Below, one piece after another: positions 29,352 to 55,850 of a stretch of DNA of 64,000 nt (positions are counted from its first letter, which is position 1; each line of letters starts with the position of its first letter). The notes under the pieces were generated by a model. The model was not told where the DNA came from. It ran no database searches and saw only the letters and a program-made list of their open reading frames with translations. Position numbers and translations under genes: made by a program. Source of the DNA: Raillietiella orientalis (lineage: Eukaryota); NCBI GenBank assembly GCA_036172245.1, contig JAYWIR010000006.1:1-64000 (forward strand), in the 5' to 3' direction.

Positions 29352-30665
29352 CACCCGGGTGCGCCGGGGCGTTTGTTTCTAAACTATCCAGGAACAGAGT
29401 TCCCGGATAAAGGACACAGAAGAAACGAAGAGGAGGATCCCGGACACGGAGGTCGGTAAAGCGAGAGTCAGGAACGGGAGGGTGGGACCACATTAAAAAG
29501 AATACACGTATACAAAAATAGAAATAAAAATATGGAGGGCAGGGGACAGGGGTCTTTGTTGCGGCCGTTTCTTCCTTTCAGAACCGGCGATGGATGCCGG
29601 CGATCTCTCTTCTAACGCCCACTGGAAGATGGGCCTACTCGGCAGCCGACGCCATGTTCACGCCAGCTATTCCAGTGGCCTGACGACACATCGCCAGCTT
29701 CTCCAGCTCTCGGTGGTCCTTATCGATGGCGCGGGTGCAACAGACCGTTGCGATGACAGCTCCTAAGAACAGGCCGCCTGGCCTGAAGAAGCGGCGCATC
29801 TACTCTCTTGCGGTATCCCCCTGGTGCTGCATAGCTGATGCCATTCTCCGTCATAGTCCTCGGAGGGCACCGCAGTCCAAGAGCAGGTGCGGGAGCGTTT
29901 CCACTTCCCCTCACCGTTTACAGTTCGGAGAGACAACTCCCCCGGAAACACGGTTCTTCCGCTGCTTGGAGTGAAATCCCCAATGCACCAGCATGATGAC
30001 GTCCTGTTTCCAGCTCTAAGGAAACACATTAGTGTTCAAGCAGGAGGGAGGGAGGGACCACAAGTTCATCGGGGGGCACACTCAAATGTTCGCTTCACCG
30101 AAGGAGTCCCTTCGCAATGTTGCGAGGTGTGGCGGTGTCTGCCAGCTCGCAAGTCCTCCAGCCGCCAATGGGTTGTGTTGTTCCTGCGATGGTGCAGGCG
30201 ACCTCCCATCTCGCCGGTTCCCAGCTGTCATCTCTTGCCCTGCGGGCTGACAGCGCGTCGGCGAGGGGGGTGACGGCCAGGCGAGTCCACTTCTCCTGGC
30301 TGTTCCAGACCTCATCCACCGTGCAGTACGGGGCGAGCTTGGCTCAACGGAATTCCAAGAGCGAAACATCCTTTTGCTTTGCCCAGGCATGCAACGGTTC
30401 GTGCCGCCAGGCGTCAAAGTTCGTTGGGAGGCAGGAGATCCATGCGTGGGCTACCAGGAGCCGGTAGAGAGGTTTCAAGGGGAAACCGAAGCATGCTGCC
30501 GCATGCTGTCGGGGGACAGCAGCGGCCGGAATTGCAACCTCGCAGTCCAGGAAGAACGTCTGCAAAGACATCCACAACCTCGGTTGCTCCATCGGGACGA
30601 CCGCGGGCAGCACGCAACTCACTGCCGTTTTGTTTAGGCGGATGCGAGGCGGCCTGCAGACGTCG
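29352..30665 (-). mobile_element. Tx1/L1-clade LINE 3' fragment (subfamily B)
   Basis: FGFPLKPLYRLLVAHAWISCLPTNFDAWRHEPLHAWAK closely matches 51710-51830; terminal motif aaacaaacgccccggcgcacccgggtg on the minus strand at 29352-29379. Confidence 0.88.
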
Positions 30666-36189: not shown

Positions 36190-37121
36190 GTGACAAAACG
36201 CACAGTTATTTTTGGTTTCTAGGAAAACACATCGTAAGACGCCTGGCAGCAGCCGAGTATTGAATAAGAATATTTACTCGTGACCAGGAAAAAGCTGCTT
36301 GCCTCAAACTATGTGGAAATTTCGGGCAAATCTCAGTACTTAGAGGCGATTTTTTCAATGAAAAATCAATTTTGGAAAGTATGGAGGAATGTGATGCAGT
36401 CGTGAACTTGGTAGGAATATTATATGGAGCAAAAAAGCATGATTTCTACGCTGTTCACGTTGACATGGCTGGAAGAATAGCAAGAGCTGCAAAGATTGAA
36501 AAATGTACCCATGATGATACATGTTTCTGCTATGGGGATAGAAAATAGCAAGCTGCCATAATATGCTCCGAGTAAATTGGAAGACGAAAAAGCTGTAACT
36601 TCAGCATTTCCAGAAGCAATCATAATTAGGCCCAGTCTTGTATTTGGCAAAGAAGATAGTTTCTTTACTAAATTTGCAAAGTTAGCGACAATTCTTCCTT
36701 TTTTGCTGAAGATTGGCGGTGGAACAACTACATTTCAGCCGATATGTGCAACTGACCGAGCTGAAGTAGTATATCGCATAATCAACCTTAACAAAAAAGA
36801 CAAGAAAATCCACATAATAGGCGCACCAAAGTTCTATTCTTTCAAAAGCCTATTAAAGTTTATTTCGAATGTTACTAACACAAAGTGCTTGTTAGTCAAC
36901 GTATCCTTTCGAATGGCAAAGTTAATGGCTTTTTTCCTAGAAAGTACAATCATTTCTATGTTGCTAAAGCCTATAACCGGTGAGATGCAAGCCCCATGCT
37001 TACTCGATATCGGGTGAAAGTTATGATGAGCAGCTCAATCGAAAAATCAACTGACCTTGGAACAATTATCAATTTGAAAATATAGATGCCAGAATACTGG
37101 AAGGTTTATAGAAAGCATTGA
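36190..37121 (+). pseudogene. Complex I NDUFA9-family / NAD-dependent epimerase pseudogene, alphaproteobacterial type
   Basis: VIFG..FLGKHIVRRLAA, CDAVVNLVGILY, EAIIIRPSLVFGKEDSFF, TFQPI; intronless, with deletion, stop and frameshifts. Confidence 0.85.
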
Positions 37122-37534
37122 GGAGAAAGCGTGAAGGGGGCTGCAAAGAAATTTAAAATTGGCAAGACAGCTTCACAGGGGAAAAAAAAAAAGACGTGAG
37201 GAAAGAGGAGATTTTTAGTCAAAAAAAAGCCTGGAAGTGTGGGTCATAATTATAAAATTACCGACTGGGATGCACCTGCTGATACCAATTCCACTACACA
37301 GAAAGCGGACAGACGAAAGTGGAAAAAAGCTATAACGTCATTTAATGGAAACAAAAAAAAACTACTTGAAAATCTTCACCAGTTCCATTATCATAGGATT
37401 GGAGATATTCAGTTAATCTTTATCTGTGCAGATGAAACGACAAGAGTATTAAGGTTGGCGTCTTATGTTTAATTTTTTGCACTATGTGCACCTCATGTCC
37501 TTATTAATTTCACATAGACTTCTAGGTTTTTCCT

Positions 37535-37815
37535 TATGCAAGCTGAAACGCGTTTATAAGTCGTTTGAGACAGCATAGTACGCCAATTTGCAGGATTAAA
37601 GGGTGAGCAACTTCTACCAGGGATTCTTTTGCCTTTTTTTCTGCTTAGCAAGTTTCTTAGTACTTAAGCTAAGGGTCTGTTGCAGTTCCAAAGTCGCTGA
37701 ATTGCAGCGTTTAGGACTTTAAAAAACGCCACTACTAAAAATAGACAATGGCCAAGGATTTTTTTGCCTTTTTTTCTGTTTAGTAAATTTCTAAAATCTT
37801 ATAGCTTAAGCAATT
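37535..37815. repeat. Two imperfect ~135-bp tandem units of a Wolbachia-type intergenic repeat
   Basis: ggatt.ttttgccttttttt(t)ctg.ttag.aa.tttct recurs at ~37621 and ~37756; caagctgaaacgcg.ttataag start recalled from Wolbachia intergenic repeats. Confidence 0.55.
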
Positions 37816-38049
37816 GGAAGAGCACACAAAAAACGCTAATATTTAAAATAATTGCCCTTCTTCTAGGTTATGCGAGAAGTCTAACCTCTTTTTGAAAAAA
37901 ACATTTCCAGTGAAATCACCATGTCAATCAAAGTTACAAAAGACGTAATTATTTACTTTCTTTTTAAACATACATAAAATAAGAATGTACTATTATTATA
38001 ACAAAGTTCGGTATATTAGTTGACATTTAAGCGCAGTGAGATAGAGCAT

Positions 38050-38783
38050 TGAGGAGGTGAAGTGGCCCCAAGCGCCCTGCAACAGGACATCCCTCCCCTT
38101 GAAATGGCAGGAGGTGGCGTTGCTTGTGGTACATTGGGGTTTACCTTTCAAAGCACGCCTGCATCACTGCACACGGGGGAGCTGCAGACTCCCAGTGCGA
38201 CCGGTGCGGGTAAAAAGAGACATTCCCCCACCTTCTTCTCGTATGCAGAGCCATCCGCCCTTTATGGAATCGTCTTATGGCGATCCTGGACATCCGCGGA
38301 GGCGCCCCCAAGGACGTTTTCAGGCGCCTCTTCTCTCGTGACGCCATGTGCCAGCCCGCCTGGGTAGCAGTTCTCTGTTGCATTCGAGGGAGCGAGGCGG
38401 CTTGGAAGGCGACAAGAAGGCGCCAAGCCTGCGGCAACGCCTTACTTTGGACTCGCCTTTTCGTACGAAGCGTGTGCAAGTGGCGCCTTTTAGGCGCAGA
38501 TAGGCCGCAGCTTGTGAGGATCCTGAACAGGATCAAGAGGACCGTTCCGCGCGCACTGTGATTCCCTCCCCGCCCTCCCATGCCCAGAACAGTGGTTCCC
38601 TCCCTACTTTTGAACTCTTTGATTCTTTTGTTTTCTTGTATCCCAACCCCAGCGCGTCGGAAGGACCTCGCCGGTTCCGCACCGGCAAGAAGCAAACTGT
38701 CTTGGTGTGGAGAGCCAATGGACTCGGCACGGGAAAATTCCCGTGTTTTTATTATTAAATACATGCCCCGTCATATCCTGGTG
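38050..38783 (+). mobile_element. LINE 3' fragment (subfamily A) inserted in the Wolbachia-like DNA
   Basis: EEVKWPQAPCNRTSLPLKWQEVALLVVHWGL, ILDIRGGAPKDVFRRLFSRDA; stop at 38559-38561; T-rich UTR; degenerate terminal motif 38757-38783. Confidence 0.85.
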
Positions 38784-38834
38784 AAAATGAGATAGAGTAT
38801 TACTATCGGTTTTGTGGTTATGTTGTAATCAGTA

Positions 38835-38908
38835 TGAAAATAGTGCGATTCGAACGCACGGCCTTCGGTTTAGGAATCCAACGCTCTATGCTACTGAGCT
38901 ATAGTCCC
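38835..38908 (-). tRNA. Bacterial-type tRNA-Arg(CCT) pseudogene
   Basis: Minus strand GGGACTA TA GCTC AGTAGCATA GAGC G TTGGA TTCCTAA ACCGA AGGCC GTGCG TTCGAAT CGCAC TATTTTC A; D and T arms intact, acceptor and anticodon stems mismatched. Confidence 0.8.
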
Positions 38909-39149
38909 GTGTTTTCTGTTATCTGCACAAAATCATCGCAAAAAATCTCGTACTTTTCTAGATCTCCTGCGTCACCCATTTATAATGACAAAAAACATTT
39001 CTGTATTTTTCTTGAGTATGATGAAATTATATTTAATAATACGGTTTCAATTGATGCTTGTTAACAACATTAGTTATTCCTAAAGCAGTCAAGACGATTT
39101 CGCTTTAAGCAACATGAAGGTTGAGGAAAAGAGAGGAAAACAGTACTGG

Positions 39150-40480
39150 TACATCCGGGTGGCGGCAAGCCAATGCGAAAGGCCAAACTATGGTATGGAG
39201 TACACCTTCCAAAGGTGGTCTTCGGAACGGCCTTTGCTAGGTTGAACAATAGAAAACACCAGAGGAGTGGGAAAGCTGCAGAGAAAGACATTGTGGGGAC
39301 ACTATTGCCCAAGAGTCCGGTTGAAACAACTGTGTCGTCCTAGGGAAGAAGGCGGCTCCGGGATAAAGTCGCTTGCACATTCCATGGAAATCATGAATAC
39401 GCGACACATCTTGGATATCGCTACTCACTGGGATGACTGGCCGTACGCGGCGCATAGGGCATACGCCTTGTTGTTGAACAACTCGAAAGGCATGATGACT
39501 GCGCTGCTAGGCCGAACAGGAGAATGGAGAACCATCGACCCCACCTGGATAAGAAAACAAAGGCTAGTGCGAAAGCGCAAGATAAAAATCGTGCCTAAAA
39601 GTAGGGAACTCTGGCAGAAGGAATCCATCCTGGTGATCCCATGGATGCTTCCGGTCCCCCAAGACACGAGAAGCTGGATCTACCACCGTTCCAGAGTTAC
39701 CCTACAACGCATCCAGGGGTTCAGAAGAGGAGGATACCCACATCACACTTGTATACTCCGGTATAGAGAGATGATGTTAGGTAGGTTTACCAACAAGACC
39801 CGCGAAGTTTGGAAAAACCACAACAACTTCGCATGGTCCAGGGTAACCAAGATGAACCTCGGAAGAATTATTTAAGATGAAGACCAAGACACCAGTGCCC
39901 TCCAAGAAGCCGCCGATAGCTACGGGAGTAACAGTTTGAACCTGTTGGCGATTGGCACGACACTCTGGAGGAGTGACCTTCCGCCGGACACCCAGGACAA
40001 CCTCCTGATGTTTTATCATGGAGCAATCCAGAGCGGGTCCAGGCTCAAGCACTTCGCCGTAAGACAGGCAGATGAAGACTGCACGGCATGTGGATACATC
40101 GATACGAGACTTCACGTCTTGACGGGTCCCACTTTGCTACGCGACTGGCTGATCCTGAAAAGGATCAAAAGACTAAACAACAAGTGTGTGATGGAAATGC
40201 TCGCCGGGATGTATCAGGGAGATGGTAATGTTCCCTTTTTCAATCCCATGGTGAGGACGACCATTGTCCTCTTCATCACCGCCATACTTGTGCGGTGGTG
40301 GAAGATAAGGAAAGCCGGAAGAACCGGAACCCCCATGGAGGTCCTCCAAGGACTCATCCGGAAGGAGATCGGTATCAGAAACTGTGGACGACTCCAAGCC
40401 TGGAATGCCGATTCATCCTGAAGAGGATTGAGGACGACGGCCGGGACCAAACATCTGGAAACCCACACTGAGTGCAGAAG
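39150..40480 (+). mobile_element. Second, distinct L1/Tx1-type LINE family: ORF2 C-terminal fragment
   Basis: KLWYG..., LWGHYCPRVRLKQLCRPREEGGSGI (post-RT P..EGGLG motif), CTACGYIDTRLHVL (zf-RVT-like); sequence unlike subfamilies A and B. Confidence 0.75.
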
Positions 40481-40544
40481 TTTAAATAACCCAAAGGACC
40501 TTCAAGTGAAAGAGGTATTGTATTGTGTGAATGGAAATTGTAGT

Positions 40545-41274
40545 ATGAATGTTTAAAAATTGAAACATAAATTTACCCCACCTCTTGTGGGACTTTGTGA
40601 AAATCGCGGCAAGTCAACGATCTCAAAGTTAATTGCTGGGATGGAAAATCCAAAATCTGGCACCATTTTTCTAAATGATAGGCCAGTTGCAAGTAGCCAC
40701 ACATCAATTGCAATAGAGCACAGGAATGTCGGATGGATTTTTCAACATTCTGCTCTGTTTCCTCACAAAACAGTAGTAGAGAATGTAACTTTCGCTATTC
40801 GTAGCTCTTATAACAAAGCAAAGTATCTCACTGCATTGGAAATCTTGTAGCTATTAAACACAGAAGAATATGAAAATATGTATTCTAATGCCCTACCCGG
40901 AGGGCAACAACAATTAGTTGCAATAGTAAGAGTAATGGCGCAAAATCCTGATGTTGTGTTGCTCGATGAGCCATTTTCTATCTTAGATACACTGTCAAAG
41001 TGCCGAATAAGACATCATATATTGTTTCTTTTTAGAAGTAAAAATACCCCCATGTTGATGGTAACTCACGATCCGCAAGAAGCATTAAAGGTCGCACATT
41101 TTATGTTCGTGATGAAAAGCGGTAAAATGATCCAATCAGGAGTTTCCAGTGATATACATATATCATAGTCCTAAAGATCATACGCTGGCAAAGTTCTTCT
41201 TCAGTGACTGCTCTTCTATTTTACAGTTAGGTGATGAGCTTCCGTTGGATGGTATACTTGCTGCAAGAAAATAA
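40545..41274 (+). pseudogene. ABC transporter ATP-binding subunit (PotA/FbpC-like) pseudogene
   Basis: Decayed Walker A (ENRGKST), FQHSALFPHKTVVENV, LPGGQQQ, LLDEPFS, MVTHD; internal TAG at 40848-40850. Confidence 0.88.
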
Positions 41275-41415
41275 TCTAGATTGAAATTATTATAAAATAG
41301 AACCAAACACAAAAAAATTTCGATCTATAACAAAATAGGGTGACATGATTCATGTGTTACTTGACTTCAGTCAGGTTTCCTTTTCCAAAAGTTAATATTT
41401 TAAATAGAGGTACAA

Positions 41416-41559
41416 ATGAGCTTGGGACCATGGCGATTGTTTCTAGTCTTAATAATAATCTTAGTTCCGTTTGGCGCAGATAGGTTCCCACAAGTTATGG
41501 GTGATCTGGGAAAAGGCAATAAAAACCTTAAACAAGGACTCGGAGAAACTGTCATCTAA
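41416..41559 (+). pseudogene. tatA: Twin-arginine translocase TatA, probably degenerate
   Basis: MSLGPWRLFLVLIIILVPFGADRFPQVMGDLGKGNKNLKQG; agagg Shine-Dalgarno-like sequence upstream. Confidence 0.8.
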
Positions 41560-41689
41560 CGAGCCAGATCGTGAGCGTCTTTATACTTTGTGACGCGTAC
41601 TTTAGTGCGTGTCATCTGTTTGAAAACTTGAACTAGCTAAAGAGTAGATTGAAATACTGCGGTAATTATGTTAGTTAGAAGGAATCATT

Positions 41690-42360
41690 TTGTTAAAGGA
41701 ATTAATTGGGCAAAAAAGTGGGGAATCAACCGAAAATAGAAAATTAGCTCCTGATACTCTAAAAAAGGTTGCAGACACCAACAATGCCAATAGTGATAAA
41801 GTAACACTGTTTGACAGAAAAACCGCTTTGCATGAGCGCTGTTTTGGTATTTTAATAATTATCTTCTCTTTGCCACTATCAGTACCCATGTCGGTTCCAC
41901 CTAGCTATACAACTCTACTTTCTATACCTCTGATCCTATTCTCACTGCAGCTTCTGTTGGGGTTTGATTCTCCTGGATGCCTCGCTGGTTGGAAAGAAAA
42001 GTCTTTTCAACGATCAACACTAGCTGTTGTGGTAGAAAGAACTTCTGCTCCAAGAAAAATAGAAAAGTTCATGAAACCGAGAATGTCTTTCATTTTCTGC
42101 GGGCCAGGTGAAAAGATTTTAGCTTTCCTAATGCTGCTTTGTGCATTATCAATAGCCATTCCGGTGCCCCTAAGTAACTTTATGCCTGCAATTGGCCAAC
42201 TCTCATTTCACTTGGTATTATGAGTAAAGATGGGCTTCTCTCTATACTGGGAGTCTTAGTATCTCTATGCGGCTTGCTATTTACCCTTGTTGTAATAGTT
42301 AAAGGACCACAGATCATACTGGGAGCATTTTCTTTTCTAAAAAGTTTTGTATATGGTTAG
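41690..42360 (+). pseudogene. exoD: ExoD-family exopolysaccharide synthesis protein pseudogene
   Basis: LHERCFGILIIIFSLP...IPVPLSNFMPAIG; frameshifted tail MSKDGLLSILG; stop overlaps the cysS start. Confidence 0.8.
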
Positions 42361-42537
42361 GCTCTATAGCACCTCAACCCAAAAAACAGAGCCTTTTATA
42401 CCGATCGACAAAGATCCTGTAAAAATGTACGTTTGCGGACCAACGGTATATGACACGGCACACATAGGTAATGAGCGTTCCGTTGTTGTTTACGACGTAT
42501 TATTTCAACTGCTTAAATTTTGTTATGGCAAAGTTAT
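42353..42537 (+). pseudogene. cysS: Cysteinyl-tRNA synthetase N-terminal fragment
   Basis: [28 protein letters not shown]; truncated after YGKV. Confidence 0.9.
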
Positions 42538-43264
42538 TTCTTTTTCTTCCTTGGAAGCGATGTTTTTCACTATCACTGCACTCAATTGATATGCTAGAAT
42601 TGCCCATTATTTCCAGCTAGTTCGTGTAATTGACATGGCGTTACGAGTTCTATTTTTCCACTGCTTTCAAGAAATTCCAATTCATTTCTGGTTTCGGCAA
42701 CAGAAGGAAATTACTTCGTTCGATGTATCACGTAAATTTTCTTTGCAACTTTAGAAAGCTCTGTGGTCCTATCAGCCGCAGAATCCCCTCCACCTGCAAT
42801 GACTATCGTTTTATCCTGAAAATCAGGAATTTTATTTAAGCTATAAAATACAGATTTATTTTCATATTCTAATATACCGCCAAGGGGTGGGCGGTTATGC
42901 TCAAACATTGCATTTCCTGCAGCAATGACAACAGCTTTGCATTTCACTTCTGTGCCTATGTTCGTTATTACAGTAAAGTGTTGACCGCCGTTATCCGAGA
43001 CTTTTTCCACCTTTTTTGACTCAAGTGGTAAACAGGCTCAAATGGCGAGGCTTGCTCCATCAACTGTTCAATTAGCTTTTGAGCAGTAATTATAGGTTGG
43101 CCAGGTATATCGCATATGGTTTTTTCTGGGTAAAGAGCGGTACATTGCCCTCCCGCTTGATCCAAAACATCTATGATCTGACATTTGATATCGAGCATCC
43201 CTGCTTGAAAAGCAGTGAATATTCCAACGGGTCCTGCACCTATTATTACAATGTCAGTTTCCAT
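42538..43264 (-). pseudogene. Ferredoxin-NADP reductase / thioredoxin-reductase-family pseudogene, 3'-truncated
   Basis: [51 protein letters not shown]; frameshifts near 43010 and 42715. Confidence 0.9.
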
Positions 43265-43269
43265 ATCAG

Positions 43270-43855
43270 GTGATAATTTATTTAGATATTAGCTTTCTTT
43301 GCGAGCAAGCTCAATCGCTTACAAATATCACATTCTTGCATGGGTTTCAACAGCGTGCTACGCACATACCCAACATGAAAGAACTACTTGACGAATTTTT
43401 TCAACTCCCTTATTATAAGACTGAAGCTGTGCAGATAAATCGGCAAAATCTCATATATCTGAAGCATAATTGTGAAACTTCAAATTTGTGTAGTAAAAAC
43501 ATAAAATGTGAAAGTCAAACGATAGGCAATGTTGGCAAGGGAATGCCAACATCCAAGTCCAATTACACAAGCGGATCTGTTAATGAGCACAAGATGGATA
43601 ATCTTTGTAATGAGCTTGCAGAGGTGGTGGCTCAAACAAAATCTCAAAGCGGGTTTTCCTAAAGTTGCTCATTTTTCAGTTCCACCGGAAACTAATGGAA
43701 AGTCTCATGCTAGTGCTGAGCGTGAACCTCAGCAAAGTTCTGTGAATGATGCTCAAGAAAATCCGAAATCAAAATTTACCGATGTAGTTCATGAACGTGT
43801 AGGTCAATCAGTGGGAAGAAATGATAAAAAAAAAAGTGGAATGCCTCGAGGTTAA
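43270..43855 (+). pseudogene. Frameshifted hypothetical gene within the bacterial-type insertion
   Basis: Two overlapping AT-rich ORFs (43270-43662, 43529-43855) divergent from the reductase; no recognisable domain. Confidence 0.4.
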
Positions 43856-43904
43856 GTCCTAATATGTTAGACGCTTTCTTTTTCTTGTCATTTCGGCATT
43901 TTTT

Positions 43905-44101
43905 TCCTGTCATTCCAGTGCTTCTCTTTTGTCACTCGGGTAGCGGACACGGGAATCTAGAAATGCATTGGGTTTAGTAGCATAGGTTTTACAAGAAATA
44001 ATGAGTGTTTTTGTAAAATTGTGAAGAAAGGTGGATCCTAGTGTCAGCTACTTGGATGACAAAGGGGATGGATGTCACTCCAGCGTGTGACGCTGGAATC
44101 T
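43905..44101. repeat. Cluster of Wolbachia/Rickettsiales-type short palindromic repeats
   Basis: tgtcattccagtgct, tgtcactcgggtagcggacacgggaatc, ggatcctagtgtcagctacttggatgaca, tgtcactccagcgtgtgacgctggaatc resemble the TGTCATCCCAGTGCGTGACACTGGGATC family as recalled. Confidence 0.75.
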
Positions 44102-44423
44102 GGGAGCAGAAAAAAACGAACAAAACGTTTTGGAAAAAAATTTGAAAAAAGGGTTTACACTTGAATTTGTTCTTGGTATACTAATTGCAGAATATTTTTA
44201 CTGGGGGTTAATATGCATGGTAGCAAAGATAATGAACGTAGCAATATATGGCCTTCACATAGAAAGGTTGGTCCTGATAAGTATAAAAACTACGAGCGGC
44301 AACGCGAAAGCAGCAAGCCTGACACACAACTAGGTAGTAGCAGTTCTACTAATGCTAGTAGTAGTAAAGGTAAAGACAAGAGTAAGTAATTTTTTTTTGT
44401 GACAATTTTAATGGGAGTGGATT

Positions 44424-44897
44424 ATGCCTAAGAATAATTTTGTAATAGAGTTGGTTGACGCATTGAATTTGTGTAATTATTATTTTGATGATATTTACAC
44501 TAATTTTACTGTAGAAGGGAAAAGGATTGTTGGTTCATTTGTTTCTAGTACTGATATAGAAGAGTGTTCTCAAAAAGTAAAAGAAGAAATAATAAAACGA
44601 CACTATGGTACTGAATGGGCAGCAGAGAAATATAACAATTTAAAGTGTTTTCCATTTGTTATAGGTGATTAGAGGAAAAATCATACAGATTTAGAGGTGG
44701 AGTTTGCAGGTTCTATAAATAGTGAAGTAATTCGTAACTTGAAGATTTATTTTACTCGAGAGTTTATGATGAAGGTAAATGCAAAAGTAGCTGTAAATCT
44801 AGAAGAAAGGGGATTAATGATGGTGGAAGAGGGTCATGAGTGTGGAAAAGGATCTGTTCAACTAGAAAGAACAGACAGATCTTCCCCTTATTTATAG
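44424..44897 (+). pseudogene. Hypothetical bacterial-type gene with an internal stop
   Basis: ORFs 44424-44672 and 44697-44897 are in the same frame, separated by one TAG; gggag upstream. Confidence 0.45.
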
Positions 44898-45068
44898 TGT
44901 ATACCTTTTGGCGATGGGTATTGTAAAATGAAGGGGTATCCTTCAAGATTTCTTGAAATATTAAAAAAATATATATGTTACAGCATTTGAAGAAAAATTG
45001 GAAGAATGCAGTCTTGAAAAGGTTCAGACATTTATGAAGGTAGAGATAATGAATTATACATAAAAGAC

Positions 45069-45880
45069 ATGACCAACATAAATGTTATCAAGAATATAGC
45101 AGAACGTCTTAGAGAACGAATAGCGCTTGATTTTAAAACTCCAGGCACAGAAGATTCTAAAGTTGAGAATTTTAAGGATATCCTTAGTAGTTTAATTTTT
45201 ACATGGGCTGTGAAATGGATTAGTGCTTGTGAATGTATAGAGAGTGGTGATAGTTTTTTCCTGATACCTATAGCAAAAAGGTATGGTGATCAGCTTGAAT
45301 CTTTAAAACTCAGGGACTTGTACAAAACTAATGTAAAACGTAAGAATTTTCTATGTGATATTAAAGGTAAGGCTGCAGATCCAGACATTGATAATTGTGA
45401 AGACCCTGTTTATGCGATCCCTAATAAAAAAATTGCTGAGGTACTTCCTAAAATTATGCAATCTCCGTTTGCGTATAATGAAAGAACTGGACATTTTGAA
45501 TTTGCAGCTGATCTTGGGCCAAGTTCAAGTGTGGGGTCTCCCAGCTGTTCCAATATCTTCTAAAGTGCCTCTGCCTCAGCTGGGGACAGGAGTGGGGGTA
45601 GCTGTTCCTCTCACTTCAAAGTTTGATCAGAATAAGAATCCGGATGAGGGTTATGATTCTATGCAAAATTCATCACAATCTGTAAATGCTAGAGTTCCAT
45701 GAGATGTTGAAGGAATAAAAGAAAGGCGTAATAGTGATGGACGTAATCTTGACGGCGTTTCTGTAGATAGTGCTCTTCTGAATTGCATGTATTGCAGCCT
45801 GCAAGTGGAATGGATCAAACAGATGATATTGGTGTGTACGCTTCACAAGAACTTCTTACCAGTGATCTTGAAGATCCTGC
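45069..45880 (+). pseudogene. Frameshifted hypothetical bacterial-type gene (right edge of the insertion)
   Basis: 164-aa ORF continuing as Ser/Asp-rich coding-like sequence in shifted frames up to ~45880. Confidence 0.4.
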
Positions 45881-45919
45881 TTGAAAAGCGATAGCAATGG
45901 GTCCCCTTCCTATAAGATA

Positions 45920-45966
45920 ATCGCTTCTCGCCTTTTGGCTAAGATCAAAGTTCTTATCAGCTTAAT
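45920..45966 (+). ncRNA. U2: U2 snRNA 5' fragment with an internal 11-nt deletion
   Basis: ATCGCTTCTCG-CCTTTTGGCTAAGATCAAAG[TGTAGTATCTG missing]TTCTTATCAGCTTAAT matches metazoan U2 nt ~1-59. Confidence 0.9.
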
Positions 45967-47325
45967 TTGTGTGTTTTTTTGTTCCTGTCGTGTGTTGAAC
46001 CCTGTCTCTAGTGATGTTTCCAGTGTTTTGTCTTTTTGTGTGTTGTTTTTTAATATGACCCCACTGCCTTTTTTTTACTAGTGGTCATTGTGTTGTGTGG
46101 CTTGTAGTTTTTCTGTGCTCTGTGTTTTGTTGTTTCAGTTTTTTTGTGTCGTGTGCCATTTGTTTTGTGTTGCTTAAATTTGTTTTATGTTTTTGGTCTT
46201 TATGTTGTCTTTTGTTATGTAGTTGCCTTTTTTATTGAATTCGATTTGTTTTTGTTTTTTTATGTATTCCTATGTACTGTATAAACCTTTTTCCTGTGTG
46301 CATTGTGCCTTGGGAAGTGAAATGAGTCGCTTCCGCAAGTAGTTACCGAAGCGCTGTCTGGAATTGTGTCCTGTCTGGGCAGTGTCTGCTGGTGACGTCT
46401 AGACTTACTGTGCCTACTCCTATTTAATAAAGTGTTTCATTGATTCCACTGTTAAGTTGTTATATGTTTTTGCAATCTGGTTTTGGTTTATTGCACTTGG
46501 GCTTCTTTATGTACGCAGTTTTTCCAAATTTTTTAGATTTAGTTGATGTTTTTTGCCTTTTTTCTTTTTTTTATCACTTGATCACTTGTGAAAAGACGTC
46601 TTTTATGGTCACAGTGGTTTTTCCACATGTTCGTTAGTTGCAAGAAAATTGTTCGAGAATAGCTTGTGAACTCGCTACTTGATGAGTACAAGTTCCAAGG
46701 GAAACAGCCGTTGTTGACGGTATTCCCCCTAAGTTTATGGAAACAGTTGAAAGGGTACAATTGGACCCACAGTCGCGTGTGTTTACCGTCCTTTACCCCA
46801 TAGCCTCACCGCTTAGCTGTGGTGTGGCTAATTGCAATTTTGCTACGCGAACAGCTGCTATACTTCAACAAATCAACTCTTTAAAAAGGCACTTTCGATC
46901 TGTACACGAACTAGAAGTGGATAGGGTGATTTACAAATGTCGTGTTTGCTTGAGACTTATAACTTGCAGAAGGCCCTCTGACCATCGATGCTTCGATGTG
47001 GATCTCCACATCGAAACCAATGAGCCCCCTCACGACCTTCCGTTGGAGAAAGATCCATGAGGTTTTCTTGCAAGAAGCCAGAATGTGGGATGGCATTCTC
47101 CTCGAGAAGGGGTTTGCTTAACCACCAAATCTGGCAGGACCGGATGGAAAGGAGGACACGTTCCCCTTCTCCTGCGGTGTGTTCCACCCAAGAAGAAGTG
47201 CAAGAACTTCAAGTAATTACTAGCTCTGAACACACGGATGTCCAAGCAAAGCAGGATACTGGCTTCTTTGGAAATCTGGACGAAATTATTGGGGAACTGC
47301 TAGAACAGTAGCCAACTGATGATAC
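45967..47325 (+). mobile_element. 5' portion of a Utopia/NeSL-like RLE retrotransposon (TG-rich 5'UTR + N-terminal zinc fingers)
   Basis: ORF 46737-47060 VLYPIASPLSCGVANC...SLKRHFRSVH...YKCRVC...PSDHRC, then frameshifted FSCKKPECGMAFSSRRGLLNH; directly follows the U2 fragment. Confidence 0.72.
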
Positions 47326-47349
47326 CATAATAAGGATGAGGATAACAGT

Positions 47350-47476
47350 AAATGCGGAGCTGTCGTTGATGCTCGGAATAAATATGGTAAAACTGCATTG
47401 CACTTTGCTGTTGAAGGAAGTCATGAAGAAGTGGTTAAGCAGCTTTTAAAGTGCGCAGCTGACATTGATGCTAAAA
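47350..47476 (+). pseudogene. Isolated ankyrin-unit fragment paralogous to 21614-23974
   Basis: ttgatgctcggaataaatatggtaaaactgcattgcactttgctg is identical to 22311-22355; translates KCGAVVDARNKYGKTALHFAVEGSHEEVVKQLLKCAADIDAK. Confidence 0.88.
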
Positions 47477-47670
47477 TGTGATCCCTTCCCTGCTCTCCAA
47501 ACTCTTTTTGATTCGTTATTTTTTATTTTGTTTTTATGTTTTCCCCGTCCCCTTTCACTGCCGAGGAGTGGCACGCCCTGCTGCGTTCCGTGGCCGCTAG
47601 TGGGTCGTTGTACCACCTAGTCTGTTGACCAAGAAGGTGTTCTAATAAACGTCCCGGCGTATCCGGGTGG
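47477..47670 (+). mobile_element. Solo LINE 3'UTR (subfamily A) from the ORF2 stop to the terminal hairpin
   Basis: tgtgatcccttccc, T-rich tract, gccgaggag, tggccgctagtggg...tgtaccac, aataaacgtcccggcgtatccgggtgg; matches 55221-55440 and 1844-2056. Confidence 0.85.
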
Positions 47671-48045
47671 CGACGTCTAATGGAAGATCTGGACAGCGAT
47701 GTTGCGGCGAAGTGGCAGGTTACTGTCACCATCTCCGAGAAGGATAAGAAGATAGGAGAGTAGAAGACGGGCGAGCTAACAGACTGCGATCCCGAGTACG
47801 CTTCCTCATGGACTTGCGCGCTGGGGCGCGCTGCTCGATGTTCCCATTGAACATCTGAAGTGACCCTTGTTGCTCAACTCCTTCACCCTCCCCTTAAAAC
47901 GGCAGGAGTCGGCTCTACTGTTGCAGCACTGGAGACTCCCTTGGAACGCCAGTCGACACCATTGGACCCGGGGAGCGGTGAACCCAAATTGTGTTAGGTG
48001 TGAGGTACAGGAGTCCCTCCCCAAAGAACTCTGGAGAAGACGTTC
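47671..48045 (+). mobile_element. LINE ORF2 internal fragment
   Basis: RWGALLDVP, LPLKRQESALLLQHWRLPWNASRHHWTRGAVNPNCVRCEVQESLP. Confidence 0.75.
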
Positions 48046-48444
48046 TTTGGACAGCAATGACCAGGAAGGCAAAGAGCATGCGTGGACGCGATCGCCTTCA
48101 AGTGTGCATGGAGGAACGAACTGCGTACGCTAAAAACGTGCCAAACACGTCCCGCTCAAGCGAAGAACAGGTGGCGCGTCGCTCTGCACGGCTTTTGCGG
48201 AAAAGTGCGATCGTCTTCGAACGGTATGACAATGTCGCCCCTGCAGTTGTCTCCTAGAATTTTACAGAAGTAAGCGCAACTGAGAACGCGACTGTAAGGA
48301 GGCGTTTCCCACGGCAACAGAGAGGAACATGCGAGCTGCAAGGTGCTGACTCCGAGAAGCAGTTGAATTCCTCTGCCACCGCAGGTGATACTCAATCCGT
48401 TGTGGGAAGGCGTAAGCCCAAGGCGGGTAGGCAGGTGTTAGAAT

Positions 48445-48860
48445 GTGGATAAAATGGAGCAGGAAGAGGGTATGGAAGTGGCCTCTCGCGACATCTCAAA
48501 GGAGGGCTGCAGAAGAGATTTCCATCCAAGGGGACATACGCACAAGTCCATGGATGACTTGGAGTGGCATGCATTCCCTGCATGCATGCCCCTCTCACCA
48601 AGGGGGGAGGAGGGTCCATCCATCATGTTCTTTGCCATGACGCCCTATCATGCTTCCTCTCGTCGTCTGCGATTCACCAGTTTGAATGCCAACGGTCTGC
48701 ACGACGACGAGAAGAGACGCTCGGTAGATGAAATCTTGCGCTTTTTCGATCTCCATCTGGCACAGGAGACGCATCAGACCTCCCATAAGGAAATCGGAGA
48801 TATCGAGAAAAGTGCGGAGAGAGCTGCATTGGTAGAATGGCACAGAGCACTGGTGCGAAA
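48445..48860 (+). mobile_element. LINE ORF1/ORF2 junction fragment with APE endonuclease start
   Basis: RLRFTSLNANGLHDDEKRRSVDEILRFFDLHLAQETH = APE domain I/II motifs (N.NG ... QETH). Confidence 0.75.
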
Positions 48861-50212
48861 GGTAACTTTCTGAAGAATGCTGGAACTGAAGAATTGCGAT
48901 TTTTTCAAATTTAATTTCTTTCTCCTGTGCAAGGAGGCATTTTTCACGAATTTTGTTAGATTTATAACGCATTTTGAGAAAATCAAACTGTGAGCAGCAT
49001 TATAGGAACAATCGAAATCGCCAACTATCACATATTCATTCACGAGAACCTGTCAGGTTATTCATTTGCACATGTGGCTTTCCGTATAATTTCTCTAAAG
49101 GCTTTTTTCCGCACGAGAATTCCTCAGTTTCTCCGAGTGCTGACTATGACATGGAACGTGTTTACCGGAAGCGCCATTTGACCCACAAAACAATTTGGAG
49201 CTTGTTGCTAGAAATCAATGATGGAAACATTAACCGGCATTTATTACATTTCTAAGAGGATTTGGCTACAATGGATGGTTTGGAGAGGAGTCAGCTACTC
49301 CCAAATTACGGGAGAATGATTTTAAATTGCTTGGAATAGGCTCGTAAGAACTTGGAGCAAGGGAATTTCTAGAAAAGCATTTTTTTGATAGAGGTAGGTT
49401 GTTACTGAGCTCTTAGAACTGTAGACCGATCAAGAGAAGAAGGCATCAGAAGATCTAGGGCTTGAAATAAGTTCATATTTTGGAATCCTATCAGCAGTTT
49501 TTCAAGGGTAAGCATAAAAAGAATTCCAAGAAGCAGGAAGAAAACAAATATGTGAGAATCTACAAAGAGATGGTTTTTAATATAAAAGAACCGTCGCAGT
49601 CAACGAAGGCGACACGAAAATTTTGCTTCAATTTCGTCAGCAGAATTTCACACAACTTGTCAGTAATGCTAATGTGCTGAAATCACTAAGCATTGACCAA
49701 AGAATTTTGGTCTTACAAATACAGTTTCCAAGGCACACACGCACCCACAACTACGAAAGTATACATAAGAAATCAAAGGGTGTGTTCAGAACATAAAAAA
49801 AATCAGTACTGATATTGATCTGCACCTCCTGGAGTTAGAACTAATCTTAGAACTCGATGTGGTGGTTTAGATGGTGGTGGTCTGATTGATTGTGGCGGAG
49901 GCGAAAGTGGGGACATTCATCATTGTTTGAAATAATTTGAAGTAGTGGTGCAATCCCTCATTCTTGAACACAGAGGTGTTCATTGGAGTTTCTATTGCAA
50001 CCAACACGAGCACCTAGTTTCCGGGGGATTTCCTCCTCGGACTACTCAAGGTGCGGAGCGTTGGAATCATTTCCGCACCTGCTATTGCACTGTGGTGCCC
50101 TTCAAGAACCGTGGTGGAACCTGCCTTCGGCGTCCTGCTCCAGGAAATAGTTCCAGCGATGTGATGCGGCAGTTCTTCACAGAAGGAGTCCTCTCTCCGA
50201 GCGTAATGGTTT

Positions 50213-50540
50213 CACACTCGGGTTCACCGGGCGTTTATTCTCTTACAGGAATCGATGGAAACGATGGCCCACCATTTTCAATTACAACACTAGAAAGAAG
50301 TAGGTTGAAACAAAAATAGAAAATGAAAACAAACTAGAACAAAAAAAACAAACAAATACAAAATTGGTAGGGGAGAAGGGAAGGTATCTCATTTCGTGGT
50401 GGGTGAGGCCTTTCCATCCGTTGAAGGATGCAGACGAGCTCCTCCTCCTCTCTTCTCAGGTGGAGTCACCTGGAAGCTATTTGCTGAAAGCGGATGGCGT
50501 GCAGGACAGATCCCCTTTCACTTGGGCCTCCGTCGGCGGC
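50213..50540 (-). mobile_element. LINE extreme 3' fragment
   Basis: Minus strand EEELVCILQRMERP (compare EDLEGILQRMDP), T-rich UTR, aataaacgcccggtgaacccgagtg at 50213-50239. Confidence 0.7.
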
Positions 50541-50785
50541 TCACTTTGCCGAAACCTGGTTTGGGCGGAAGTGTTTTTCGGTCACTCCGTCAGCGAGTGT
50601 CTGGGAAGGAACTTTACTTTCGTGTGAGGTGTTTAGGGTGAATCGTCGGTGTCCGATTGCAGCCTTTCCAGTGGACACTGCGATGGAGGTAGGTGTTGTG
50701 GAGGCCTGTTCACCCCCACAACCTGCAGAATGGGGGGTATCTGCCCCAGGATAACCCCCGCCGCCGGCGTGGAGCTGGAGCGCTA

Positions 50786-52827
50786 TGGTGGCCACGCCAT
50801 GCGTGGAAGACGGACTTACGGTGCACTTCGTGGCCTATTTGCGCGCTTGCTGGCGCCACGCTCTGATTTTGATCTCTTTCAGCGGCTGCCACGTGTACGG
50901 CGTGCCGTTGCGGCGGGATATCAGGCAGGGCGACAGCTTAAGTCCGTTGCTCTTCAGCATCTTCTTTGAGTTGGTGCTGAGTGCGTACAGGCTGACGCTG
51001 GCCAACCTGCCGAGTTCTTGTCCAGGAACGCCGTCCGTGGCGACCTATGCTGACGACCTGCTTCTCCTTTTACCCACGACCACCCCGGCGTCCAGTCTTG
51101 AGGATTTCTTCGAGCTGATTCGCCGGGGAGCGGGCATGAGCGTAAACCGGAGCAAGAGCGTGGTAGTTCCAATTGGTGCGGTGTGGTAGGGGCAGTCCGA
51201 CTGGATCCGCCTGGGGATCCCGACCGCTCCGTCCTTCCAATACTTGGGCGTTCCGCTGGGGAACGCCAGCCCAGTGGAAGTATGGTCGGACTGCCTTCGG
51301 AAGGCTACGAGTGCTCTGAGCCCGTTCCACCACGGCAGGTTCCTCCTTTCGGAGCGGGACGCGGTATGAAACACCATCGTCGCCCCCCTCTTGCGCCCCC
51401 TGCTTTTTGTTTGTCCGCCCTCATGCTCGGCCAAGCTCCAGGCGCACAGCCTGTTGAGGAACGCTCTGTGGGGACCTGCGAGGTTCAGGATCCACCTCAA
51501 AGATTTGGCGGTTGCGCGTCGGGATGCCGGCTTAGGCATCCTGACGCTGGAGAGAATCGAGCTGCAGGTGCAGCTTCGAATGTTGGCCCTGTGCGCCAAC
51601 CTTTGGTCAACTCCGTGGTGCGCTCCCGCGCGCCTGCTCCTGCGGCGCTGCACCGGCAGCGATGGACTTCTGTCGCTCAGGCCGCATACGGAGCGCGCCA
51701 CGAGAAGCTTCGGTTTCCCGTTGAAACCGCTCTACCGGCTCCTGGCAGCCCAGGAATGGATCTCCTGCCGCCCAAAGAACTTTGAATCCTGGCGGCAGGA
51801 GCCGTTGCATGCCTGGGCAAAGCACGAGGATGTTACCCTTCTGGAACTCCGTCGCGCTCACCTCTCTCCGTACTGCATGGTGGATGAGGTCTGCAACAGC
51901 CAGGAGAAGCGGACTCGCCTGGCCGTCACGCCCCTCGCGGACGCGGTGTCAGCTCTCCGGGCAAGAGATGACAGCTGCCAACCGGCGAGATGGGAGGTCG
52001 CCTGCTCCATCGCAGGAGCAACCCGACCTATAGGCGGCTGGAGGACTTGCGAGCTGACAGACGCCGCCACACCTCGCCACATCCCGAAGGGACTCCTTCG
52101 GTGGAGTGAACACTTGAGTGTGACCCCCAAAGAATTTGTGGTCCCTCCCTCCTGTTTGAACACTTCTGTGTTCCCTTTAACTTGGAAACAGGACGTCATC
52201 ATGCTGGTGTATTGGAGTTTTCACTTCAACCGTGTTTCCGGGGGAGTTGTCTCCCCAAACTGTAAGCGGTGCGGGGAAGTGGAAACGCTCCCGCACCTGC
52301 TACTGCACTGCAGTGCCCTCCTAGAACTGTGGCGTAGGCTGGCCTCAGCTCTCCTGTATCAGGGGGACACCACAAGAGAGTAGATGCGCCGCTTCTTCAC
52401 GCCAGGCGGCCTGTCTTTAGGTGCTGTCGTCGCAACAGTCTGTTGCACCCGCGCCATCGACAAGGCCCACCGAGAGCTGGAGAAACTGGCGATGTGTCGT
52501 CAGCCCACTGGATTAGCCAGCGCGAACATATCGTCGGTTGCCGAGTGGGCCCATCTTCCAGAGGGCGTTAGGAGAGAGATCGCCGGCATCCATCGCCGGT
52601 TCTGAAAGGAAGAAACGGCCGCAACAAAGACCCCTGTCCCCTGCCCTACGTATCTTTATTTTTATTTTTTATACTAGTGTATTTGTGGTCCCCGTCCTCC
52701 CGTTCCGGACTTTCCGTATACCGACCTGCGTGTCGGTGATCCCACCCCCTTCGTCTCTTCTGTATCCTTTGTCCGGCGACTCTGTTCCCGGATAGTTTTG
52801 CAATAAACGCCCTGGCGCACCCGGGTG
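50786..52827 (+). mobile_element. Young 5'-truncated Tx1/L1-clade LINE (subfamily B): RT core to 3' end
   Basis: Single frame 50785-52605 with three premature stops and no frameshift; IRQGDSLSPLLF, TYADDL, FQYLGVPL, NCKRCGEVETLPHLLLHC; terminal caataaacgccctggcgcacccgggtg. Confidence 0.93.
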
Positions 52828-54790
52828 ATAAACTGACGACCCCCTGCGATCCTCTCGATCTCCTGGGCGTTCTCCGCGGTGATCACGTGGATCTCCTGCA
52901 GGAGCGCCAGGTCGAAGTCACGCAGGGGGTCGACCGTATCCCGCCTGTTGCTGTCGTCGCGCAGTCCGTTGACGTTCCAGCAGGCTACGCGGATCCTACG
53001 GCGACAGGCGAGCCCAGGTGTTAATCCTGGGAAAGTGGCAATAGTGCTCCCGCCACCTGGTCGGGCGGGACGCTAGGAGGAGGGGGTACGTCGCGCACCG
53101 CTTCTCCCTCCTCCATGGGGGTCGAATCGTCGTCAGGGCCGTGCAGAGGAAGGGGGGTTCACCCACCTGCACTTCCTCCTCCATGGGGGTCGCCAGCTGC
53201 ACGGTGTCGGGGAATGAGAGATTCCCACCCTCGCCTCCCACGCTGCCGGCTTCCCCCTCGGGTGCTGGTTCATCCCTCTCCTTGATCTGGATGCGTCTCC
53301 TTGGATTCTGGGACTTGCGTCCCGTCTTCTTTGGTGGCGCCTTTGCTGAGGAGGACACACTTCCAACGTCCGGATCAACCTCACCTCCATCCGGAGCTTT
53401 CCTCGCGGCCGGCCTTCGTAAGGCTTTTCGCGAGTTCTCACAGCCTTGCAGTTCAGCCGCGAGTTCTTCCACCGCCTACTGGAAGGCGGCCTCCTCGATC
53501 GCGTCGAGCGCGGCGCGCGGTTCCCCCTCTGTTTCCCCAAAGGGTTCGCCATCGACCGTCGCGGCTTCAGCGGACGCGAGGGGGGGGGATTGCTCCCCCG
53601 GTGGCGGCATCGAGTGCCTCCACACGCTCTAATTTTACCGAACAAGCGCGAAGTTTTTCGAGGCACGGTTTTTCGCGCTGCGTTTTTGTTTTCCCCGCGC
53701 TTCGTTCGGGACGCCCGGACTTTCTTCTGGGCTGTACTGTCTGCCAGCCTTCGCCGTCGCCAGCATCGTCGGGAGTGCTCTCAACCGACGTTTGCTGGGA
53801 TGGCTTAGGGACTGGCATCTGGCTCCTTACGGCCTGCTTCATGGTATTCGTCTCTCCTGCCCGTTTCCCCTTTGCCTTTTTGGCAGCGGGAGGGACCGGG
53901 ATTTCTCGTCTTGGGCACACCTTGCGGATGTGGCCCTTGTTTCCACATAAGTGGCATTGGATGTTAGGGCACCGTTTTTTTAAGTGCCCTGTAGCATCGC
54001 AATGGCCACAATACTTGGGCTTTCCCACGTACCAAACATCGACTTTTTCTTCGCCGATATTTAGTTTGTGGGGAAACCCATTATTCTCCGGTAGTGTGAC
54101 GCGGGCAGCGGCCATCCCACTGAATAGCCTTCCGTACGTTCGGAAGACATTGGGTTGGGCCCAATACGCGTGCACACTACTGTGTTTTGACAACTCCTCA
54201 TGGATGCTGGTTTTGTCCATTCGGAGTGATACGCCCGTGAGGTGGACCACGACGGAGCGGTTCTCCGTCACAGGGAAGATCCTGCGGCCGTCCACCGTAA
54301 TGGGGGTGTTTAGCAGGCGCTGCGCCAGACTTGCCTCTCTGCAAGTCAGCTCAACTCGCTGCCCCCCACTAAGAACGGAGAGGCCCTCGAGGTCTTCCTC
54401 CCTCACATTCAGTCTTTGCAGCTCCATTTCAAAGAAGCGTGCAATTTTCTCGTCGAACACACTGCCTACCTTGTAGATCAGCGACGGTTTGTAGCCGCTG
54501 TCCTTGTAGGCAGTCTGCTCTGCTACTGCAGCCGGGGATGGTGCAGCAGCGACGGCACTCCAACTCCTCGCCGCTGGCGAAGAGGGTCGCGAAGGGGCGG
54601 TTGCCCCCGATTCCGATGGGGCAAGTGCCCCGGATTCCGTGGGGGCGGACGCCCCCACTTTCATGGGTGGTGGAGAGCAAGTCGCCGCTCCTCCCCCAAA
54701 TTCCATCGCGCTGTCCTCAGGCATTTCTGCCATGGGACACCGGCGCTCCTACACACCAGACAAAACCACCGAAAACCTTCGCACTAACTA
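52828..54790 (-). mobile_element. LINE 5' end: short 5'UTR, Gag-like ORF1 with two zinc knuckles, and start of ORF2 APE
   Basis: ORF1 from ATG 54733 with CGHCDATGHLKKRC and CHLCGNKGHIRKVC (CX2CX4HX4C), frameshift in a G run near 53580-53588; then RIRVACWNVNGLRDD...DLALLQEIH at ~53000-52880. Confidence 0.92.
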
Positions 54791-54799
54791 GACCGCTGA

Positions 54800-55440
54800 G
54801 CAATGCCAAACCACCTCCGCTCCCTAGAAGGACACGGGGAAGTGTGGACCCAAACTGTGCCCGGTGTGGGGAGCGGGAGTCCCTCCCCAACCTTATAGTT
54901 GACTGCCCTGCCGTCCGGATTCTGTGGGAACGTCTGGGAACGACCCTTGAGATACCGGCTGGCGGCAACCCCAGACAAGTTTACAGTCTTCTCTTCGTGC
55001 GAGACGCCCTGAGGCCAGCCGCAGCCCCGGCAGCACTTTGCTGCATCCGCGGAATTGTGGCTGCCTGGAGTGAAGCCGAAGCTGAAGATTCCAACGCAAC
55101 GGACGTCATCCCGTATGCTGTTCGCTTCCTGCAGAGAGCAACCGGATGGCCCCAGTTGGTTAGATTGAAGGAGGACCTCGAGGGCATCCTGCAAAGGATG
55201 GACCCTCCTCCCAGTGGGCAGTGATCCCTTCCTCTCCCTCCAGAAATTCTTTTTTTATATTGTTTTATTTTTCTTTTTGTTTTTTCCCCCTTTCCCTTCT
55301 ACTAACGAGGAGAGTCACGCTGGTCTGCGTAACAGTGTCCCGTCAGGTCCGGCAGAATATTGGCCGTTAGTGGGGCCTTGTACCACGTCATGTATTGACC
55401 ATGGAAGAGTTTAAATAAACGTCTCGGCGTATCCGGGTGG
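54800..55440 (+). mobile_element. LINE 3' fragment (subfamily A)
   Basis: NCARCGERESLPNLIVDC...EDLEGILQRMDPPPSGQ* (stop 55222-55224); terminal aataaacgtctcggcgtatccgggtgg. Confidence 0.88.
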
Positions 55441-55850
55441 CATCGGCGTCGCACTTCGCCGCGACGACACTGCGCACAGCGCTGCGATTGCGGCTGCGGG
55501 CGTCATGGGGTCCCGCACGAAGAGGGGCCTCAAAGAGGCTCTGGGATTGTCCACAGGGTGCGGAATGGACGCAGAGAAACGTTCCCACAGTTCCCGGAAG
55601 GCGACACGCTGCACTATGAGGTGGGAGAAAGTCTCCTTCTCTCCACACCTGGAACAGTTCGGCGATGCCTCGTCCAGTGGTGCCGGTGCCATTACACAAG
55701 AGACCCCAGTGCAGTATGAACCGCGCCTATTGCTGCTACTTGTCGAGAAGCATTTTACTGGCCAAGAACACAGGGGGCACTTCCAACTCTTCGGGCCGAA
55801 TGGAGAAGAGTTCACCCCAAGGTTCCAGTCCTTTGGAGACGGGTCCTTTA
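55441..55850 (-). mobile_element. LINE ORF2 C-terminal fragment
   Basis: IRPEELEVPP, SPNCSRCGEKETFSHLIV, RELWERF, PLFVRD. Confidence 0.75.

Follow-up and report, generated by a model that had tools for sequence, protein, structure and literature searches.

A U2 snRNA, Utopia-like, ankyrin and LINE composite in the Raillietiella orientalis genome: a possible dead chimeric retrocopy

Introduction

Long interspersed nuclear elements (LINEs) can produce chimeric retrocopies; bipartite and tripartite examples, U6/L1 among them, have been described in mammals and in Magnaporthe (PMC2104539). Here we analyse a composite at positions 45920-47672 of a 64,000-nucleotide stretch of the Raillietiella orientalis genome (contig JAYWIR010000006.1 of assembly GCA_036172245.1, positions 1 to 64,000 of the forward strand), which we call the window. 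The composite joins a piece of U2 small nuclear RNA (snRNA), the 5' part of a Utopia-like retrotransposon, an ankyrin (ANK) unit and the 3' end of a LINE.

Three further systems bear on these parts. Utopia elements are retrotransposons that lack long terminal repeats (non-LTR) and are specific to U2 snRNA genes (Kojima and Jurka 2015, PMC4640811). They are described as having "one to three ZF motifs at the N-terminus", a reverse transcriptase of the NeSL clade and a C-terminal restriction-like endonuclease (PMC4640811). SINEU are short interspersed nuclear elements (SINEs) with heads derived from U1 or U2, and template switching has been proposed for the addition of these heads (Kojima 2015, PMC4494074). 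ANK-PRANC or CLANK genes are described from chalcid wasps (Pers and Lynch 2018, PMC6161386).

Results

The composite (Table 1) consists of four parts, all in sense orientation on the + strand. We give about an even chance to its being a dead chimeric retrocopy, the product of a single LINE-driven reverse transcription in which templates were switched; most likely it is neither a working nor a mobile ankyrin gene. The anatomy, the orientation of the parts, two informative ends and a clean join between ANK and LINE can be read directly from the DNA. A sequence-only reading had earlier described the locus as a four-part chimera. Its four pieces are real and all on the + strand, as found by Rfam, phmmer, Pfam and alignments within the window. 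Four separate templates are not needed: U2 and Utopia are a natural pair in print (PMC4640811) and therefore probably formed one template, which makes three templates and not four.

Table 1. Features of the composite and its immediate flanks (positions in the window).
Feature	Position	Strand	Evidence
5' flank: Wolbachia/Rickettsiales-like pseudogene with internal stops and frameshifts	44424..45917	+	tblastn of P0013, P0026
U2 snRNA nt 1-32, one G missing, from U2 +1	45920..45950	+	Rfam; by-eye comparison with fly U2 gene
U2 snRNA nt 44-59	45951..45966	+	17-nt U2 motif search
T/G-rich leader, presumed 5' untranslated region of Utopia-like element	45967..46736	+	low-complexity tandem pieces
Open reading frame (ORF) part 1: CCHH and CCHC zinc-finger module, N-terminus of R2-like (restriction-like endonuclease type) non-LTR retrotransposon	46737..47057	+	phmmer
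ORF part 2: third (C2H2) finger, then unassigned sequence to TAG (47309-47311)	47063..47311	+	Pfam, local alignment
35 nt between Utopia-like ORF and ANK unit, no match in window	47312..47346	+	
About 1.3 ankyrin repeats, sense	47347..47476	+	Pfam Ank E=1.1e-8
ANK/LINE join and TGA (47479-47481), ORF2 stop of LINE family	47477..47481	+	alignment
LINE 3' untranslated region (3'UTR) to family 3' terminus	47482..47672	+	AATAAA 47644-47649; stem CCCGG/CCGGG 47653-47667
3' flank: degenerate ORF2 C-terminal fragment (zf-RVT region) of another LINE copy	47692..48040	+	tblastx; four-copy alignments

On the left, the composite opens with the first base of U2. Rfam places position 1 of the U2 model at 45920, with 27.2 bits and E=0.0057 in a 2.1-kb search (E=0.17 when the whole window was searched); this score lies below the gathering score of 46, as expected of a fragment. 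U2 positions were numbered by eye from the fly U2 gene that PMC4640811 prints in its supplement. The 11 nt that should separate the two U2 pieces (TGTAGTATCTG) are absent. These 11 nt are the Utopia target core, the Utopia insertion site being U2 nt 38/39 (PMC4640811). Because the 3' flanks of Utopia begin at U2 nt 39 (PMC4640811), the missing 11-mer spans the insertion point. Rfam and motif searches found no U2-like site in the window other than 45920-45966.

What is new at this locus is that U2 base +1 stands within 2 nt of a Wolbachia/Rickettsiales-like pseudogene that breaks off after ~83% of its length and whose last aligned codon ends at 45917. As U2 +1 directly adjoins this cut pseudogene, the U2 piece is not a resident U2 gene, no U2 promoter is possible upstream of 45920, and the left end looks like the 5' end of an RNA. 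The piece thus came in as DNA copied from an RNA 5' end. A U2 leader reaching to nt 59 would be expected if the donor family makes a target duplication of ~20 bp, and the 11-nt gap would on the same assumption be a later scar; for reptile Utopia a duplication of about 20 bp is described (PMC4640811). The U2 piece breaks after nt 32; in crocodilian SINEU-3, too, "the 5' 32 bp" of U2 are kept and an internal deletion follows (PMC4494074). By this analogy, nt 32 may be a point at which U2 RNA repeatedly breaks when it is reverse-transcribed.

The right end is the 3' terminus of the LINE itself, at which target-primed reverse transcription starts. The LINE part is a 5'-truncated copy with its 3' end kept, running from the ORF2 stop to the terminal motif (47477-47672). 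LINE homology begins at (T)GTGATCCC, 1-2 nt before the TGA. The join to the ANK unit has no filler and an ambiguity of at most 1-2 nt. There are six + strand sites of GTGATCCC in the window, and three of the five others (1846, 14726 and 55222) close LINE ORFs of 74, 259 and 283 codons; the earlier statement that the ANK frame ends on the ORF2 TGA of the LINE is thereby borne out. Positions 47478-47671 align with 55221-55441 (68% over 225 columns) and with the copy from 1844 onward. The terminal motif occurs five times in the window, each time at the end of a copy, compared with 0.07 occurrences expected. The 3'UTR had been called complete, with an AATAAA and a terminal hairpin. It does run to the family terminus and carries the AATAAA, but 26 nt are missing internally relative to both alignable copies. 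The 5-bp terminal stem is conserved, but its folding z-scores (+0.76 to -1.8) are no better than those of shuffles.

Because its terminus is of the hairpin type, with no poly(A) tail, the LINE of this window is neither L1 nor MGL. A word-indexed protein search, which is weak evidence, found no longer relatives of its C-terminal ORF, and a protein atlas returned generic zf-RVT clusters only. Within the 5' end of Utopia-1_NVit as printed, a 16-mer exactly matches the LINE 3'-terminal motif (PMC4640811 supplement S1); the window sites compared with it are 47654-47669, 55424-55439, 2041-2056 and 29352-29367 (-). The shared letters hint that Utopia and the LINE family of the window exchanged ends before, or share a recognition hairpin.

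The ORF behind the leader is broken by a frameshift (46737-47057 and 47063-47308) and contains three zinc-finger motifs. With this ORF as query, phmmer found 11 proteins at E≤0.001 among 1.84 billion representatives, the best at 5.6e-25. The invariant finger residues are C28, C33, R51, H52, H57, C68, C71, H83 and C85. The third finger is matched by Pfam zf-C2H2 (E=0.0049), and local alignment of ORF part 2 scored 73 with P0003 (shuffle maximum 48) and 54 with P0010 (shuffle maximum 41). Eight of the 11 relatives were scanned with Pfam, and in two of these eight (P0007 and P0011) RVT_1 follows downstream of the matching fingers. P0007 is closer to solved R2 proteins (1.9e-49) than to L1 ORF2 (about 1e-14). 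As relatives of the fingers carry RVT_1 and P0007 is R2-like, we take the broken ORF for the N-terminus of an R2-like element of the restriction-like endonuclease type. In the sequence-only reading this part was the 5' end of Utopia; the R2-like finger N-terminus stands, whereas the name Utopia itself comes from the U2 flank and from nothing else in the fragment.

The remainder of the element was not found. Neither RVT nor an endonuclease lies within 45920-47672, and tblastn with P0007 and P0011 detected no Utopia-like reverse transcriptase or endonuclease downstream on the + strand up to 64000. Pfam scans of neighbouring ORFs returned no Utopia body, but bacterial fragments and the host gene Utp11 instead. 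The T/G-rich leader (45967-46736) had no detectable relative and no other copy in the window, and Rfam found no ribozyme or further RNA family in 45700-47800. The word-indexed protein search gave no longer relatives of the finger ORF, which is again weak evidence, and the protein atlas gave generic zinc-finger clusters only. An R2-like (restriction-like endonuclease type) reverse transcriptase fragment lies at 16882-17418 (-), about 29 kb from the composite (tblastn with P0007 and P0011 about 1e-20; Pfam RVT_1 1.8e-4), with no U2 sequence beside it.

The ANK unit amounts to 44 codons with no in-frame ATG before the last codon. The open frame that includes it has 52 codons, one Ank match and no PRANC, and its single methionine is the last codon. 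Positions 47350-47475 are 81.7% identical over 126 nt to 22295-22420 in the ANK-PRANC gene of the window (E=6e-30), and an ungapped comparison with the site at 22292 gives 79% over 130 nt. The unit derives from an ANK paralogue other than that gene. No ANK sequence was found on either outer side of the 130-nt remnant. A functional ANK-PRANC or CLANK gene has a start codon, several repeats and a C-terminal PRANC-like region, and the unit has none of these. The ORF upstream is broken and out of frame with it, in agreement with the earlier remark that the Utopia and ANK frames are not continuous. No ankyrin protein can be translated from the stretch, and the in-frame TGA is without function. The ANK-PRANC gene itself (21608-23974, +) is uninterrupted; its 788-amino-acid ORF encodes about 11 ankyrin repeats and, at the C-terminus, a PRANC domain. 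Downstream of it we found neither a LINE tail nor a poly(A)-type end, and its neighbourhood yielded no bacterial genes.

The pseudogene on the left of the composite is cut at residue 530 of the 636 residues of P0013 (aligned residues 1-380, 397-480 and 481-530). P0013 and P0026 both align up to 45917 and then have about 105 residues more. The pseudogene (44424-45917) is 75% identical to P0012 and about 50% identical to many Wolbachia proteins; its relative is a hypothetical protein, and the region is colinear with a Wolbachia locus (L001). It is the last piece of an AT-rich, Wolbachia/Rickettsiales-like bacterial insert (36264-45917) that now consists of pseudogene fragments: NAD-binding/RmlD-like, ABC transporter, ExoD, cysteinyl-tRNA synthetase and pyridine-nucleotide oxidoreductase. 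The insert is itself interrupted by a LINE fragment at about 38051-38790, and a tRNA-Arg(CCT) match (38835-38908, -; 52.5 bits) is found within the same bacterial-like stretch.

On the right, LINE similarity of the flanking ORF2 fragment extends by eye perhaps back to about 47677. A resemblance to the bacterial gene noticed by eye from 47673 onward proved in local protein alignments to be LINE ORF2. The 3' terminus of the flanking fragment was sought near 48410-48440, where the alignment was not convincing. Positions 47477-52833 are a head-to-tail series of + strand LINE pieces: the tail, the ORF2 C-terminal fragment, an endonuclease N-terminal fragment (48628-48816) and a piece from the reverse transcriptase to the 3' end (50755-52833). 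This run could be due to repeated insertion at one spot or to a longer chain of template jumps. Exons of host Utp11 with introns follow at 57275-58504 (+; Pfam 1.2e-7 to 1.6e-13) and mark ordinary eukaryotic DNA to the right of the nest of transposable elements. Elsewhere in the window, a palindromic match to the mir-249 model at 12895-12986, on both strands (36 and 30 bits; gathering score 70) and in GC-rich LINE-like sequence, is probably just an inverted repeat.

Discussion

We infer template switches, co-transcription from a U2 promoter and a single event in time. The LINE reverse transcriptase would have primed at the conserved 3' terminus of the LINE's own RNA and copied the 3'UTR back to the ORF2 stop. 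It would then have switched to an ankyrin mRNA, copied about 130 nt of it, and switched again into the 5' part of the RNA of a Utopia-like (R2-like, U2-gene-resident) retrotransposon. Copying would have ended at the 5' end of this RNA, which would be U2 +1 because of read-through transcription of the element from the U2 promoter; such a U2-led transcript is plausible, given that Utopia elements live in U2 genes (PMC4640811). The cDNA would have been joined on its left to the bacterial-derived pseudogene and would abut an older LINE fragment on its right, some target DNA having probably been lost. A Utopia 5' fragment without a 3' end does not result from ordinary target-primed insertion, because such insertion truncates 5' ends. 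In a variant of this scheme, U2 snRNA itself may have been reached by a switch of its own, on the model put forward for SINEU heads (PMC4494074).

Several observations weigh against this origin. The composite has no target-site duplication, as the sequence-only reading had already remarked: the longest word common to 45870-45919 and 47655-47740 has 7 nt and lies away from the ends. The 3' flank does not continue the 5' flank but belongs to another LINE. A search for the lost end of the bacterial gene found it nowhere in the window (tblastn, E≤5), local alignments after the composite being no better than shuffles. Both acceptor switches would fall inside RNAs, and the chimeras described in PMC2104539 mostly have full-length 5' parts. 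The join between the Utopia-like part and the ANK unit cannot be placed to the base, 35 nt there being without assignment. In the 64-kb window the chimera is seen in one copy only. Finally, nesting of LINE in LINE is common in the window, and adjacency by separate events is not rare. Of the two origins offered earlier, serial template switching is nevertheless the better supported: the sense orientation of the pieces, the LINE's own 3' terminus at one end, the start at U2 +1 against bacterial-like DNA at the other and the filler-free join of ANK and LINE speak for it, and the absence of a target-site duplication speaks against it.

The same density of LINE fragments inserted into one another is an argument for an alternative in which a U2-led Utopia copy, an ANK fragment and a 5'-truncated LINE were inserted independently and trimmed by deletion, the stop-codon join and the shared frame being due to chance. 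The + strand LINE pieces running directly after the composite, the lack of a target-site duplication around it and the decay of every one of its ORFs would all fit. We nonetheless consider stepwise nesting unlikely, if quite conceivable, because it needs several coincidences: one breakpoint exactly at U2 +1, loss of the Utopia 3' body, a 130-nt ANK remnant without ANK on its outer sides, truncation of the LINE within 2 nt of the stop codon, and the same orientation in four of four pieces.

The joins might also have been made between RNAs before reverse transcription, by ligation, by trans-splicing or by transcription of an ANK gene with a LINE stop, 3'UTR and poly(A) signal, the product being copied by the LINE machinery through its 3' terminal motif. 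The literature describes RNA ligation ahead of U6/L1 retrotransposition as well as trans-splicing (PMC6789731, PMC11838501), CLANK-type ANK genes are described as duplicating fast (PMC6161386), and the LINE part starts at the very codon on which the ANK frame ends. Against this, an in-frame stop has a 1 in 3 chance, the ANK codons number just 44 and lack a start codon, the upstream ORF is disrupted and lies in another frame, and the window holds neither a second copy of the junction nor a LINE tail on its one other ANK gene. We regard joining at the RNA level as improbable.

It is very unlikely, in our view, that the stop-codon join reflects a laterally acquired ankyrin transcript or small family that uses the LINE stop, 3'UTR and terminal motif as a handle for retrotransposition. 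If true, this would be a route for the spread of a fast-duplicating ANK family. An ANK paralogue that captured a LINE 3' end and was amplified by it had been the second of the two origins proposed earlier. Nothing in the window supports it: the unit has 44 codons and no start, the ORF before it is broken, and its junctions are single in the window. The expectation that another ANK paralogue would carry the LINE 3'UTR likewise failed for the one other ANK gene present. In a related reading, a break or switch at the terminating ribosome would set where LINE tails recombine onto other RNAs.

Slightly less probable than joining between RNAs is patchwork filling of a chromosome break, in which end-joining captured fragments of cDNA or DNA, possibly while the bacterial DNA was being integrated. 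The composite begins on the left just where the bacterial insert is truncated, host sequence (Utp11) returns only after about 10 kb of transposable element pieces, and there is no target-site duplication. Random capture would be unlikely, however, to give a uniform orientation, an intact LINE 3' terminus and an RNA 5' end. False joins made during assembly are hardly credible: the ANK, LINE and Utopia-like sequences each belong to a multi-copy family in a mosaic region, but the window contains no N and the joined pieces share no junction repeat able to mislead an assembler.

If the composite did arise in a single LINE-driven event, it would be a chimeric retrocopy that a non-L1 LINE with a hairpin end made from several templates in an arthropod-type genome, and would extend a phenomenon known mainly from L1 and one LINE of a fungus. 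Indirectly, it would also be evidence of a U2-resident, Utopia-like element that is transcribed from the U2 start site and keeps a U2 leader, and transcription from the U2 start bears on how site-specific elements are expressed. The chimera would have arrived after the transfer of bacterial DNA. No gene was created, and the window so far gives no sign that the event helped the ankyrin family to spread.

The literature searched held no printed description of a Utopia template-switch chimera or of an ankyrin-LINE chimeric retrocopy; the components can each be compared with a described system. The ANK unit resembles ANK-PRANC or CLANK genes in that it is 82% identical at the DNA level to a repeat of the 788-amino-acid ANK-PRANC ORF of the window. 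With 1.3 repeats, no start codon and no PRANC, it is a fragment and not a functional member of the family.

As in Utopia, U2 lies directly upstream of the element, the ORF opens with three zinc fingers, and the relatives are R2-like and of the restriction-like endonuclease type (PMC4640811). Unlike Utopia as described there, the fragment comprises about the first 1.4 kb only, with no reverse transcriptase, endonuclease or 3' junction, and because these are absent its membership of the Utopia family is not demonstrable. Its U2 part extends to nt 59 and not 38, lacks the target core, and is set in bacterial-derived DNA and not in a U2 gene. By eye and motif comparison, it also differs from the printed 5' end of Utopia-1_NVit (S1 Fig), the hairpin motif of which occurs in the window only at LINE 3' ends and not after the U2 piece.

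In common with SINEU, a 5' piece of U2 heads a retrocopy mobilised by a LINE, and the 32 bp kept by SINEU-3 (PMC4494074) correspond to the first U2 piece here. SINEU are described as short, multi-copy and poly(A)-ended, whereas the present composite is a single copy of 1.75 kb with coding debris and no amplification seen in the window.

Lastly, the composite can be compared with the chimeric retrocopies of LINEs (PMC2104539). Unlike those described, the composite has no flanking direct repeat, its U2/Utopia-like part is truncated at the 3' end, and its ANK part is internal at both ends. A further difference from the L1 and MGL chimeras is that the 5' template would itself be a retrotransposon, read from a U2 promoter. 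The likeness lies in the architecture. The 3' part is a 5'-truncated LINE with its 3' end kept, the 5' part opens with the beginning of a cellular RNA, in this case an snRNA, and head-to-tail fusion gives all parts the same orientation, three templates implying two switches.

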